64,000 nucleotides of DNA from NCBI GenBank assembly GCA_037917675.1, contig JAVCBW010000025.1, positions 1 to 64,000 on the forward strand. Reading direction: 5' to 3'. This DNA is from Thermoproteota archaeon. Its GTDB lineage: Archaea > Korarchaeota > Korarchaeia > B14-G2. The position numbers and the translations under genes were made by a program. Below, one piece after another: positions 21,540 to 36,042 of the stretch (its first letter is position 1; each line of letters begins with the position of its first letter). The notes below the pieces were generated by a model. It saw only the letters and a program-made list of their open reading frames with translations, did no database searches and had not been told where the DNA came from.

Positions 21540-21743
21540 ATGGATAGGAGAAAGAAGGCACATGTCATTAGATTCTATGGGAGGATTGGAGCTGAGCTTA
21601 TGGAGCTAGATGCAAAATTAGACAACTTATATTTGAGGGGGAAGATCTCGAGTGAAGTTTACCTGAAGGTGAAGCATATAGTTAGGAGGTATGAGGAGAA
21701 GGTGGAGAGGTTTTTAGCTGAGGTGGAGGGGCTAGTAGGCTAG
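21540..21743 (+). CDS. Small helical hypothetical protein
   Basis: 67 aa with a GAGGGGG SD, directly downstream of the ATPase. Confidence 0.6.
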   Translation: MDRRKKAHVIRFYGRIGAELMELDAKLDNLYLRGKISSEVYLKVKHIVRRYEEKVERFLAEVEGLVG

Positions 21744-22468
21744 CTGATATGGGCAGCTATCTTCTCAGCTACCTCCTTTAGCGCTTTGGTAGCTTTAGCT
21801 CTTGGATATCTCTCAGCTAGAACCTCGAGTCGCATTGTAGCTTTCCTGACCACCTTATCATTGGGGACTACACCTATTACTTGAACTCCCAAGATCTCCT
21901 CTATCTTATGGACAGCTCTCCTTACAGCTCCTCTCCATCCTATTACGTCATTTAGCACCAGGCCTATAGGCTGCCGCTGAAGCTTGTCTGCAAGCGACTT
22001 CAGCTTAAGAGCGGCATCAATACCCCAGGGGTTAAGTTCCTCAACAAGCATATACCTATCTGAGGCAGCCATAGAAGCTATGACTACGCTGTTTATCCCA
22101 GCAGGAGCATCTATTAGAGTCGCATCAACGTTACTCTGAGAGGTTTCTAGCAGCTTTTCCGCAAGTATCTTTGGGCTGCTGGTAACTAAATCATGTAGGG
22201 CTGTACCAGATGGGACAACAAATAGATTTGGAAGTAGAGGTGTTGGCCTCATTATCTGAGTTAGCTTGATGGCAGGATCTTTTAGAGCGTCTCTGAGCGA
22301 TAGAGTATAGTTCACCTTGAAGAGCCTAGTCAAGCATGATAAGCCTACGTCAGCGTCTATCAGACATGTCTTCTTTCTGTACTCTGATGCAAGGATATAG
22401 CCTAAGCTAGCAGCTACTGTAGTCTTCCCTGTTCCACCTTTACCTGAGACTATGGCTATAGTAAGCAA
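21740..22468 (-). CDS. MinD/ParA-family ATPase
   Basis: Deviant Walker A SGKGGTGKTT, IDAD and IDAPAG motifs. Confidence 0.88.
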   Translation of the reverse strand: MLTIAIVSGKGGTGKTTVAASLGYILASEYRKKTCLIDADVGLSCLTRLFKVNYTLSLRDALKDPAIKLTQIMRPTPLLPNLFVVPSGTALHDLVTSSPKILAEKLLETSQSNVDATLIDAPAGINSVVIASMAASDRYMLVEELNPWGIDAALKLKSLADKLQRQPIGLVLNDVIGWRGAVRRAVHKIEEILGVQVIGVVPNDKVVRKATMRLEVLAERYPRAKATKALKEVAEKIAAHIS

Positions 22469-22730: not shown

Positions 22731-24026
22731 CTAGTCTCTTATAAAGAAAACCCATCCTTCTCTGGTCTTGGGATCCCATTCTATCTCAGGCTTTAGGAAG
22801 GTAGCGTAGAAAATGCACCCTCTCCAGACTGAGTATTGTGGGTCGCTTGCCATCATGACCCTTGGTACATCTATGTTTTCCTTTCGCAGCTCATATCTGA
22901 TTTTTGTAGGTGCGCCTACGGCATAGTTGCTGAGCTCAGGGGGGGCTTTCCATGAGAAGTTTCCTCCTGAGAGGATTATCATGCTTGTTACGTATCTTCT
23001 GACCTCTATTGCACACTTATCTAGCGACTCCTTCACAACTTGAGCTATGCTAGCGTCTCCTGGTATCCTCCCCCAGGGTAGAGGGGTGTCGAGAGGCCTG
23101 TGAAAGCCTCTGCTATAGTATGATTCGAACTCCTGGTGGGAGGGGTTGAAGAAGTATTCTCCTATGAGAAACCTTTGCCAGCTCTCTTTCTCCATCTCTA
23201 TGCGTACTCCAGCTTCTGGGATCTGAAACACAGCCCTGAACCTTCTTGGGTTCCTTTTTGCCTCTGATATCGCTCTATCTAGGTCTAGGGGGATCAGCCC
23301 TACTGCCTCCTTAAACTCCGTGACTATCTTCTCCTCTCTAGCTATATCCTGGTATCCCAGGTCTCTTAGTATCTGTCTTGCCATGTTATCTGCATCTTGT
23401 CCTCCTCTATTCAGAGGGATCATCGCGCCATATATTATCCCTCGGCTTATCGGTGTTATCTGAGTGTTCCCGTGCCCTGACTCTATGACTATGCAGTGTA
23501 TTTGCTTCTGTGAGATAGCTACAGCAAGAGGCTGTGGTATTATCGTAAGCGCCTGCACTAGAGGCTGGCTAGACTCCTCGTTTATCTCGCGGTGTATGTC
23601 TATGAGCTTTTCATACATTGAGTTTGGTGAGTTGGCAGCTATCGCTGCAGCAACCCAAAACCCTTTGAAGCCAGGGTAGTGTAGGTCACCGGGTCTTGGA
23701 GCATATTTGTTTAAGGCGTATCTGGTTATCTCCTTTATGACAGCCCATCCCTTCTCATCGTCTCTGCTCACTGTCCCGTATCTCATTGGGTAATATAGCT
23801 TTGAGAGGTCGCTTATTGACTGGAGGAACTGAGCTAGGTCTGGGCCCACAATCACCTTGGTAGCTGGGGCTCCTAGAGCTTGTTCTACACGTGTTGGTGT
23901 GTAGAAGTAGCCTCTATTCTCAAACATGTCTGGCTTGTTACCTAGAGCTGCTGGGCCGAACTTGAAGTATGATGTCCCATAGTCTTCTCCAAACGCTAGG
24001 AGCTTTCTTCTTTCAACCCACTCCAT
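22731..24026 (-). CDS. Crenactin (archaeal actin homolog)
   Basis: 431 aa; phosphate-1 GEDYGTSYFKFG, IIPQPLAVA, phosphate-2 IESGHGNTQ, adenosine LSGGN and DPQYSVWRG motifs. Confidence 0.92.
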   Translation of the reverse strand: MEWVERRKLLAFGEDYGTSYFKFGPAALGNKPDMFENRGYFYTPTRVEQALGAPATKVIVGPDLAQFLQSISDLSKLYYPMRYGTVSRDDEKGWAVIKEITRYALNKYAPRPGDLHYPGFKGFWVAAAIAANSPNSMYEKLIDIHREINEESSQPLVQALTIIPQPLAVAISQKQIHCIVIESGHGNTQITPISRGIIYGAMIPLNRGGQDADNMARQILRDLGYQDIAREEKIVTEFKEAVGLIPLDLDRAISEAKRNPRRFRAVFQIPEAGVRIEMEKESWQRFLIGEYFFNPSHQEFESYYSRGFHRPLDTPLPWGRIPGDASIAQVVKESLDKCAIEVRRYVTSMIILSGGNFSWKAPPELSNYAVGAPTKIRYELRKENIDVPRVMMASDPQYSVWRGCIFYATFLKPEIEWDPKTREGWVFFIRD

Positions 24027-33867: not shown

Positions 33868-34686
33868 TCATATGACTACAGCTTCTAGTATTCCCTTTGT
33901 ATACTTTTTGAGCTCTTCTAGCTTCTTCACTAGAGTGTCTAGAGCCCTCTCAACTATCTGCTTTGGAGGGATGGCGCCTACAGACTCCAGCTTGAATATG
34001 AAGCATGATGGGTCTCCTTTCACCTCTATCGCAGCCTTCGGGCACTTCCTCACGCAAGACTTGCATAGGGAGCATTCCTCCTGGCTTCTAGCTACTATTT
34101 TTCCATTTTCTTCTATTAACACGTGCTTCGGGCAGTATTTTATGCAGATGCCGCAGGAATCGCATTTCTCTAGATCTATTGTGATTATTGGCATGTACTT
34201 GTATGAGACTGTTGAGACTGGCTGCCACTTAGCATGGTCCTTTCCAGTCCCCAGGCGGGCTACAGCCTGCAGGTTGAGCCTCTCTCCTTTCATTAATGTT
34301 ACAATGGGTATCTTTTGGGAGACTGGCTGGACATCAGGTGCTGTTGATTTAAGTGAGCTTGAGTAGATAACCTTGTAATCTACATCACTTTTCTCATCTA
34401 GGTCCAGGACTACAGTACACTTAGGGCAGCCTCCTCCACCACACTCACATTCTGATGGCAGGTTTAGGGAGTTTATGTCTGCCTTTAGTGGTATGAGGCT
34501 AAGCCTATGAGCAATATACTCATCAAAGAAGGCAGTAGTATTCTCGAAGAAGATGACTTCATCTATAGCTAGTGTGGGGACTTCTGTGAGGATCGCCCTC
34601 CTGAGGGCGTTAGCTTTAGCAGGAGAGGCTTCCCTCAGAATAAACTTCATTTTGACCCCTTCAATCTCCATCTTCTCGATTCTCAT
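33868..34686 (-). CDS. rpoD: RNA polymerase subunit D (Rpo3) with 2x[4Fe-4S] ferredoxin-like domain
   Basis: ANALRRAILTEVPTLAID, HRLSLIPL, GKDHAKWQP; CDSCGIC..CP and CSLCKSC..CP. Confidence 0.95.
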   Translation of the reverse strand: MRIEKMEIEGVKMKFILREASPAKANALRRAILTEVPTLAIDEVIFFENTTAFFDEYIAHRLSLIPLKADINSLNLPSECECGGGGCPKCTVVLDLDEKSDVDYKVIYSSSLKSTAPDVQPVSQKIPIVTLMKGERLNLQAVARLGTGKDHAKWQPVSTVSYKYMPIITIDLEKCDSCGICIKYCPKHVLIEENGKIVARSQEECSLCKSCVRKCPKAAIEVKGDPSCFIFKLESVGAIPPKQIVERALDTLVKKLEELKKYTKGILEAVVI

Positions 34687-35632
34687 AGCTACCTCCTCTT
34701 CTCTTGCTGAGAAGAACCTCAGCCCATGGGTTGTCCTCGAAGACGTCAGATTGTGGAGGGGGCTCCTGACGAGATAGGTCTATGCCTGTAGAGACTTCCT
34801 TGTCAGCATGTTCTAGTGGCATCTTATGGGACAATGAGGCTTTTGACTGAGAGGCTTGTGTGCTGGATGCTAGCAGCGATCTCAGTTCTCTCTTTAGTGT
34901 GTCAAGCTCTCTTGAAAGGCTCTGGAGATCTTGCATCTGCCTACTGCTCCCAGCTTTCTCTAGGAGGAGAGGGAGGAGGATGGAGTAGTATTTGTTTCTC
35001 TCGCTTAGAACCTCGCGTACAACTTCTCTTATCGTGTCTGATAGAATGTTGATGCTGCGAATTAATGCTCCTAGTTGCTCTGCTGTGATCGTCAGCTTTT
35101 CTTCGCTAGGCTCTTTTGAGCATGGATGCCTATGTGGGTGCGTTGAGGAGCTTTCAGAAGAAAACTTCTTTAGGACTTCACTTCTCATGGCTGTCTGTGG
35201 TGGCTGATCAGCTGTGGTTTTATGCTGTATGTCGTGTCGCCTCTGAGAGGTCCTTAAGGCTATGGAGCTGATGTCTTCTACTGGAGATGTGGCATCAGGG
35301 ACTACTTCTACTATCTCCACCTTACCTGGATCATCTAGGATTGAGTTGAGCTCTCTCTCTAGGCTATCTAGGTCTGAGGAGACTATTTCAGGGACATACA
35401 CGATTATCTTGTCTGCTTCCTTCTCTATCTTCCGTATTTCGCTGACGAGCGACGTTAGAGGGCCTTGATCCACATCAAACTCTCTTACAGCGATGACGAG
35501 ATCTCTGATGCGTCTTCCCTCCCAGCTAGGTAAGCTGAGGTTTATTGGGTCATATTTCCTAAGTAGGCTTCTTCTTTCCTCTAGCTTCCTTAGAGTTATC
35601 CTTTGCCTCGTGACTCCACCTAGAGCAGCCAT
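34661..35632 (-). CDS. Hypothetical protein inserted between rps11 and rpoD; coiled coil and C-terminal FEDNPWAEVLLSKR motif (arcadin-2-like candidate)
   Basis: 323-aa ORF starting 2 nt after the rps11 stop and overlapping the rpoD start by 26 nt. Confidence 0.7.
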   Translation of the reverse strand: MAALGGVTRQRITLRKLEERRSLLRKYDPINLSLPSWEGRRIRDLVIAVREFDVDQGPLTSLVSEIRKIEKEADKIIVYVPEIVSSDLDSLERELNSILDDPGKVEIVEVVPDATSPVEDISSIALRTSQRRHDIQHKTTADQPPQTAMRSEVLKKFSSESSSTHPHRHPCSKEPSEEKLTITAEQLGALIRSINILSDTIREVVREVLSERNKYYSILLPLLLEKAGSSRQMQDLQSLSRELDTLKRELRSLLASSTQASQSKASLSHKMPLEHADKEVSTGIDLSRQEPPPQSDVFEDNPWAEVLLSKRRGGSYENREDGD

Positions 35633-35634
35633 GT

Positions 35635-36042
35635 TTACACTCTTCTCCCTCTTCTGCCTCCAGCTCTCCTAGTTCCATCATGTGGTATGGGCGTCACATC
35701 TTCTATCCTTCTTATCCTGAGGCCTGCTCTAGCAAGTGCTCTAACAGCACCCTGAGCACCTGGCCCAGGTATCCTGGAGCCGTTTCCGCCTGGAGCCCTT
35801 ATTTTTATGTCAATTACTGTGATGCCAGCTTGCTTTAGATCTCTTGCCACAGCATGTGCTGCCTTCAGGGCAGCATAAGCTGAGCCCTCTTCTCGATCTG
35901 CTTTGACGAACATGCCGCCAGAGTATCTGGCTATTGTTTCTCCACCAAGAGGATCCGTTGCATGAATTATCGTATCATTGAACGATGAATATATATGTAC
36001 TACAGCTACCTTCTCAGGCGTCTTACCTGACATCAGCATCAC
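35635..36042 (-). CDS. rps11: 30S ribosomal protein S11
   Basis: [11 protein letters not shown] and GGRRGRRV motifs. Confidence 0.96.

Follow-up and report, generated by a model that had tools for sequence, protein, structure and literature searches.

This locus raises the question of why a separate protein-coding gene sits between the genes for ribosomal protein S11 (rps11) and RNA polymerase subunit D (rpoD) of an archaeon, and why its product ends in a tail resembling that of arcadin-2. The gene is an open reading frame (ORF) of 323 amino acids (aa) plus stop at positions 34661 to 35632 on the minus strand of a 64,000-nucleotide (nt) stretch, here called the window, from a Thermoproteota archaeon (GTDB lineage Archaea; Korarchaeota; Korarchaeia; B14-G2; assembly GCA_037917675.1, contig JAVCBW010000025.1, positions 1 to 64,000 of the forward strand). 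Among prokaryotic proteins, crenactin is one of the nearest relatives of eukaryotic actin; to our knowledge arcadin-2 is its only characterized regulator. The cellular role of crenactin is still called open in recent reviews (PMC10936438). The explanation that we somewhat favor is that the ORF encodes a modular crenactin-binding protein, in which the arcadin-2 docking helix is carried on a different body and would hold crenactin monomers or cap or disassemble filaments.

The arcadin-2 proteins used for comparison were obtained from two Pyrobaculum-type genomes found via crenactin among 401 archaeal genomes. The gene directly downstream of crenactin in one of them (G193) served as the reference, and relatives were gathered across its order, where 41 of 62 genomes matched. 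One collected protein is identical to WP_011850311.1, annotated as arcadin-2 of Pyrobaculum calidifontis, and ends in GENEWVKILRSKR; the tail that the preliminary description of this DNA had given for Pyrobaculum is thus essentially right. It is residues 187-203 of this protein that were crystallized with crenactin (PMC5173319). Among the 34 arcadin-2s that make up our profile (A2), W195 is invariant and N193 and L199 are almost so. A BLASTP alignment with one arcadin-2 covers just 13 tail residues of the ORF (E 0.17), so that profile comparison was needed. With hhalign the window tail matches arcadin-2 at a probability of 80% and E 1.4e-5 using 2 rows, and the 22-row family of the ORF, described below, does so at 95.2% and E 2.5e-8 over 21 columns; full-length profile comparisons align the tail alone.

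The form of the tail is also found in genuine arcadin-2s. Pyrobaculum-type proteins read [DE]NEWV[RK]ILRS[KR], and those of more distant Thermoproteales genera read F[IVLM][KR][DE]NPW[LV].IL, the same NPW form as in the window; in one genome (G402) an NPW-type arcadin-2 (positions 1708-2214) and crenactin (276-1550) lie on one contig. An ungapped alignment of 19 columns accommodates all 36 tails compared. A six-frame motif scan of the 1.78-Mb genome to which the window belongs finds the tail here only, the one other hit being an unrelated NPW inside a hydrophobic ORF, and the tail profile scores the window ORF at E 4e-6 per genome. Judged by these scores the tail is no chance string, and it is very probably homologous to the tail of arcadin-2. 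A search of the window's own genome with the arcadin-2 profile has this ORF as its top match and turned up no canonical arcadin-2; arcadin-1 of G193 likewise has no match in that genome, although the empty answer from that search carries no weight.

The proposed partner is encoded in the same window. A crenactin gene at 22731 to 24026 on the minus strand matches Pfam Actin at E 7e-15 and PDB entry 4cj7 at E 1.3e-94, the crenactin of 4cj7 having the same sequence as that in 5ly3 and 5mw1. It lies 10.6 kb from the ORF, in agreement with the roughly 11 kb given before. A complex was modeled from this crenactin (16-row alignment) and ORF residues 284-323 (22-row alignment). The predicted complex scores 0.90, against 0.00 for the best of three controls, a value that speaks for likeness to arcadin-2 rather than for binding by this copy because a similar complex (5LY3, crenactin with an arcadin-2 peptide) is already solved; one of the controls, with an unrelated protein in place of crenactin, scored 0.00. 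For reference, 58 of 80 solved complexes and 2 of 110 mismatched pairs attain the pass mark for such predictions. Three runs share at least 91% of contacts, with a predicted local distance difference test (pLDDT) value of at least 63 for the partner. The predicted interface spans ORF residues 292-313 with W303 at its center, and the groove contacts on crenactin fall at residues 170-176, 195-196, and 402-416. W303 itself is predicted to contact crenactin residues 170, 171, 174, 176, 406, 407, and 410, which correspond by alignment offsets to about 142-148 and 345-349 of actin, segments that we take to form the hydrophobic target-binding cleft. Docking in the actin groove, one of the checks proposed for this locus, is therefore predicted with the window's own crenactin, and the tail probably binds there.

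Tail and crenactin also keep company across genomes. At E≤0.01 a tail profile of 19 columns finds the tail in 40 of the 43 genomes from the window's phylum and in 0 of 78 other archaeal genomes; crenactin was found in 41 of the 43 and in 0 of the 78. In the order that contains Pyrobaculum the tail is present in 61 of 62 genomes and crenactin in 60 of 62. These counts come from two clades of related genomes that also supplied the profile, and are not independent tests. One of the phylum genomes with no tail match (G005) also has no RpoD match, and the region may be unassembled there. An NPW motif from an unrelated family found regardless of actin had been named as an outcome that would refute the idea, and the distribution argues against an actin-independent motif.

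The ORF had been described as an orphan, and this does not hold. We find that it is a conserved gene, one that many of the phylum's genomes keep between rps11 and rpoD, and that it belongs to a family occupying the same slot. A single-sequence search retrieves just the ORF itself and one protein 53% identical to it, and among 41 related genomes this match is confined to the same-genus genome G001, where the gene adjoins rpoD too. The arcadin-2 profile A2 reaches further, matching 35 of the 43 phylum genomes at E≤1, and most of these matches fall toward the C-terminus of ORFs whose open frames are 282-379 aa long. In 22 of the 30 loci fetched the matched ORF lies between S11 and RpoD and has the same build as the window ORF, so that the question of whether relatives carry the insertion is answered for these loci. 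The same S11-ORF-RpoD order is seen in G023. One family member is identical to WP_012310223.1 (ACB08326.1), a "hypothetical protein" of Ca. Korarchaeum cryptofilum; slot proteins of that type are 14-20% identical to the window ORF outside the tail. The N-terminal domain is nevertheless homologous to that of other slot proteins as judged by hhalign (A1 versus A7, probability 85.6%, E 5.6e-6, residues 37-82). Positions L239 and L246 in the coil and N301, P302, W303, L307, and K310 in the tail are invariant in the 22-member alignment, and L253 is almost so. In one genome the slot gene has an in-frame TAG just before the tail (L112, G021:C33), for which a sequencing error, a pseudogene, or read-through are all possible. 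The literature that we consulted on arcadins, crenactin, and Korarchaeum does not describe the slot gene or the shared tail motif; it did not extend to Ettema et al. 2011, which reportedly defined the arcadins and where a Korarchaeum relative of arcadin-2 may be treated.

The coupling of the gene to its neighbors is tight, as first described. In the window, rps11 (35635 to 36042, minus strand) lies directly upstream and the ATG of the ORF sits 2 nt past the S11 stop; rpoD (33868 to 34686, minus strand) lies directly downstream, and its start at 34686 is overlapped by the final 26 nt of the ORF. The gene order, named by similarity, is S13, S4, S11, ORF, RpoD, L18e, L13, and S9. An overlap of 4-26 nt between the slot gene and the projected start of RpoD is seen in 19 of 21 loci, the window being at 26 nt, and the spacer to S11 measures 30-130 nt in 19 of 20 other loci compared with 2 nt in the window; at one locus (L101) the first-start rule yields a 47-nt overlap with S11. 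The operon had also been said to be normally contiguous from S13 through S4 and S11 to RpoD. Outside the phylum that is true of one of the five genomes checked (G048); in the other four, three of which are from the Pyrobaculum-containing order, there is no S11 within 1.5 kb upstream of RpoD.

The extent of the ORF is supported by the ORF list, the 53%-identical homologue, and the slot family. An AlphaFold2 model of the protein, built with the 22-row alignment, bears out the expected succession of folded domain, linker, coiled coil, and tail, and both the coiled-coil string LQSLSRELDTLKRELRSLL and the tail VFEDNPWAEVLLSKR are present in the translation. An N-terminal alpha/beta domain (residues 1-113, positions 35294 to 35632, minus strand as for all segments; block pLDDT of 72-91) contains strands at 8-13, 28-31, 38-42, 45-51, 75-81, and 105-111 and helices at 14-24, 59-69, and 82-98. 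It is followed by a disordered linker (residues 114-181, positions 35090 to 35293; pLDDT below 50 for 116-181), a helical hairpin or coiled coil (182-260, positions 34853 to 35089; helices 184-228 and 232-260) with leucines L239, L246, and L253 at heptad spacing, and a second disordered linker (261-293, positions 34754 to 34852; pLDDT below 50 for 261-290). The arcadin-2-type helix, SDVFEDNPWAEVLLSKRR, comprises residues 294-312 (positions 34697 to 34753), of which 304-311 are modeled as a short helix, and is the proposed crenactin docking site; an acidic end (313-323 plus stop, positions 34661 to 34696) closes the protein, its last 26 nt overlapping the rpoD start. Overall identity to the same-genus orthologue is 53-55% and differs by region: the tail is the best-conserved part of the slot protein (0.89), ahead of the N domain (0.74), and the linkers are the least conserved (25% and 24%).

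The whole protein has no meaningful match in NCBIfam, Pfam, or PDB sequences, the N domain matches no DNA-binding family in Pfam or NCBIfam, and a Foldseek search of the ORF model against the PDB gives no match at E≤0.001. Endonuclease-like folds (3ajv_C, 2okf_A, and 6bzf_B) are among the highest-ranked Foldseek matches of the N domain, all of them weak and none significant; the ESM Atlas offers no usable match for the fold, and when the domain is modeled alone the confidence is lower (mean pLDDT 65.5).

The tail is also present on other proteins, with up to four matches per genome in the window's phylum and two to seven in part of the Pyrobaculum-containing order. Several are small DNA-binding proteins of 142-209 aa, each with a domain above the Pfam cutoff, a coil, a linker, and an NPW tail. 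The N-terminal domain is RHH_1 at L106:1471-1896 (G032), L150:385-834 (G009), and L152:176-610 (G032), HTH_24 at L099:1300-1779 (G020), and HTH_23/Sigma70_r4_2 at L142:289-849 (G421) and L144:390-1016 (G401). By analogy, their ParR-like build suggests a coupling of DNA to crenactin.

We note further carriers. A 131-aa protein of the same genus (L003:1489-1884, G001) consists of a coil and a tail, SSVFDDNPWAEVLLNKSIRS, near-identical to that of the window ORF, and the search for a counterpart in the window's own genome (92.7% complete) found none. In G193 a second protein (L149:288-650, 121 aa) carries an arcadin-2 tail, GNEWVRILRSRS, behind a different N-terminal part with no Pfam match; because this protein bears it, the tail is not unique to arcadin-2 even in a Pyrobaculum-type genus. 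A 215-aa protein (L151:223-867, G020) with the tail ELLDNPWASILVRKG has long hydrophobic N-terminal stretches, as read by eye, and no significant Pfam family; it could be a membrane anchor for crenactin. Another family (f4; L139:6228-7046 in G040 and L140:2-385 in G041) combines the tail with a canonical-looking arcadin-2 core (GIGL motif). Its gene lies directly upstream of one read by eye as ribosomal protein S25e, and RpoD is 3-4 kb off, preceded by a gene read by eye as glutamyl-tRNA synthetase, with no S11 found; from these loci, the association with translation genes may predate the S11-RpoD slot. Two tail-less proteins of 163-167 aa (L105:1237-1725 in G028 and L110:1237-1737 in G038) match positions 59-114 of the arcadin-2 core profile at E 4e-4 and 6e-3, respectively, the first with no Pfam match, and a GIGLL motif is common to both and to the arcadin-2 core, which may by this likeness be part of a wider family of small alpha/beta proteins.

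A mechanism can be proposed from what is reported for arcadin-2. According to Izore et al. 2016 (PMC5173319), crenactin depolymerization requires the last 17 residues of arcadin-2, and these suffice for it, a tryptophan being key, and the full protein binds with a dissociation constant of 31 nM in the groove taken by the next subunit's D-loop. Because the tail of the slot protein is probably homologous to that of arcadin-2, it would dock on the same groove, with W303, F298, V306, and L307 entering the hydrophobic groove that lies between subdomains IA and IIA of crenactin. In the filament this site is taken by the D-loop of the next subunit, and a tail that fills it would therefore block the longitudinal contact. 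The slot protein could then hold crenactin as monomers, or cap or disassemble filaments, as arcadin-2 does in vitro; if it does bind, we lean toward sequestering or disassembly over tethering as the net effect. The heptad-leucine hairpin would probably make the protein a dimer whose two tails extend on long flexible linkers, and the lineage-specific N domain may add a second function such as localization or binding of a second partner. As the gene follows rps11 and overlaps rpoD, it is presumably coupled translationally to rpoD, and the dose of its product would follow the synthesis of ribosomes and RNA polymerase.

The strongest competitor is that the slot protein is a tether and not an inhibitor, a ParR-like dimer sitting on the ends of a two-stranded filament and coupling them to a cargo of the N domain, such as DNA, the nucleoid, or another structure. 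Its task would then be to organize or move this cargo and not to dissolve filaments. We think this unlikely on the whole, with appreciable evidence behind it: the RHH_1, HTH_24, and HTH_23/Sigma70_r4_2 proteins carry the same tail, each with a coil and linker, several tail matches per genome fit a docking motif common to adaptors, ParR is reported to bind the equivalent groove of ParM (PMC5173319), and the weak, nonsignificant structural matches of the N domain include endonuclease-like folds. However, this domain of the ORF has neither a DNA-binding family match nor a significant structural match, and the only experiments on this type of tail, from the same study, show depolymerization and 1:1 complexes with monomers (PMC5173319). 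Quite improbable, in our view, is that the tail resembles arcadin-2 by convergence or composition only and has a different partner, possibly the transcription or translation machinery. The likeness is short, about 20 residues, the conserved neighbors are S11 and RpoD and not crenactin, and the f4 relative of arcadin-2 also adjoins the putative S25e gene. Set against this are the profile E-values, the extreme C-terminal position after a disordered linker and coil, identical to that in arcadin-2, the NPW variants in genuine arcadin-2s encoded beside crenactin (e.g., in G402), the lack of any tail match in the 78 archaea that have no crenactin match, and the score of zero for the unrelated-protein control. 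The reading of the ORF as a spurious frame, or as a decayed remnant within an operon spacer, has a negligible probability; the missing Pfam, NCBIfam, and PDB sequence matches and the in-frame TAG in G021 would fit it, but it is already refuted by the conservation data, namely the orthologue with region-specific conservation, the slot and build common to 22 loci, and the RpoD overlap kept in nearly all loci compared, and the N domain folds confidently in the AlphaFold2 model.

Several points also weigh against the crenactin regulator that we favor. The ORF is not beside crenactin, unlike arcadin-2 in Pyrobaculum, where in G193 it directly follows crenactin. The N domain (alignment A6) has no similarity to the arcadin-2 core (A2) by hhalign (probability 0.25%, E 0.24), and the likeness to arcadin-2 is confined to the tail; the regulator first suggested for this locus is thus upheld by tail likeness, predicted docking, and co-occurrence, and not by the core domain. 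Groove binding by the slot protein, or by any member of its family, is a prediction from modeling, and the model may recall 5LY3. The co-occurrence counts carry the dependence on two clades given above, and three of the 43 phylum genomes have no tail match. The presence of the tail on DNA-binding proteins fits tethering at least as well as sequestering, and co-transcription and the link to growth rate are suggested by operon position.

The surroundings of crenactin add little to this picture. No tail lies within 1.5 kb on either side of crenactin in 28 loci of the phylum, and a scan of genome contigs with the crenactin sequence gave one same-genus locus only. A ParA/MinD-type P-loop ATPase gene (21740 to 22468, minus strand), 262 nt downstream of crenactin, was considered as part of the system and dropped, as the adjacency recurs in just one of 31 other crenactin loci checked, in the same-genus genome.

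If the binding holds, these proteins would form a modular actin-binding network built on a short groove helix, the principle of WH2 in eukaryotes and of ParR in bacteria, and would provide named candidates for the role of crenactin in cells, whether in shape, division, or DNA segregation. One tail protein is locked into a core operon of ribosomal protein and RNA polymerase genes across the phylum and other carriers are DNA-binding proteins, and the conserved "hypothetical protein" from Ca. Korarchaeum cryptofilum gains a likely function. The carriers in the two crenactin-bearing groups include the slot protein, canonical arcadin-2, small RHH, winged-HTH, and sigma-r4-type HTH proteins, and one with hydrophobic N-terminal stretches, which suggests that the arcadin-2 docking helix has been reused on other protein bodies. 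More tentatively, and as a possibility that we put at somewhat below even, the tail may be a portable crenactin-docking motif like WH2 or the ParR C-helix, making crenactin a hub for several adaptors that include a ParMRC-like coupling to DNA, with the slot protein tuning free crenactin to growth.

Among known systems, arcadin-2 is the closest in plan, with a folded N-terminal core, a helical or coiled segment, a nonconserved disordered linker, and a conserved C-terminal helix. The tails are alike ([DE]N[EP]W..[IV]L..[KR], with an invariant tryptophan), the linker of the ORF is of the same kind, being disordered in the model and poorly conserved between orthologues, the arcadin-2-type groove of crenactin is the predicted docking site, and, like arcadin-2, the tail occurs only where crenactin does among the genomes searched. 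The two differ in that the core domains have no detectable similarity, that the ORF is longer (323 aa versus 191-259 aa) and has an extra 68-residue disordered stretch, and that it is fixed between rps11 and rpoD, whereas arcadin-2 lies in the arcade cluster beside crenactin. We therefore see the slot protein as an arcadin-2 tail on a new body, fixed in the S11-rpoD operon and lacking the arcadin-2 core and the arcade location. With the family of WP_012310223.1 it shares the slot position, a homologous N domain, the heptad-leucine helix, and the NPW tail, although a single-sequence search did not link them and the databases list these relatives as hypothetical proteins. ParR of the bacterial ParMRC system likewise places a C-terminal helix in a hydrophobic groove of an actin-like protein, as described in PMC5173319. 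The RHH domain of ParR has a counterpart on the other archaeal tail proteins, whereas the ORF has no recognizable DNA-binding domain and is chromosomal, in a housekeeping operon, unlike ParR of plasmid segregation systems. WH2 and thymosin beta-4, eukaryotic motifs that bind actin monomers, offer a mechanistic analogy only: they are short helices, found on many different proteins, that sit in this groove of the actin fold and are able to sequester monomers (PMC5173319). They have no sequence similarity to the tail, and according to that paper the orientation of the helix is reversed.

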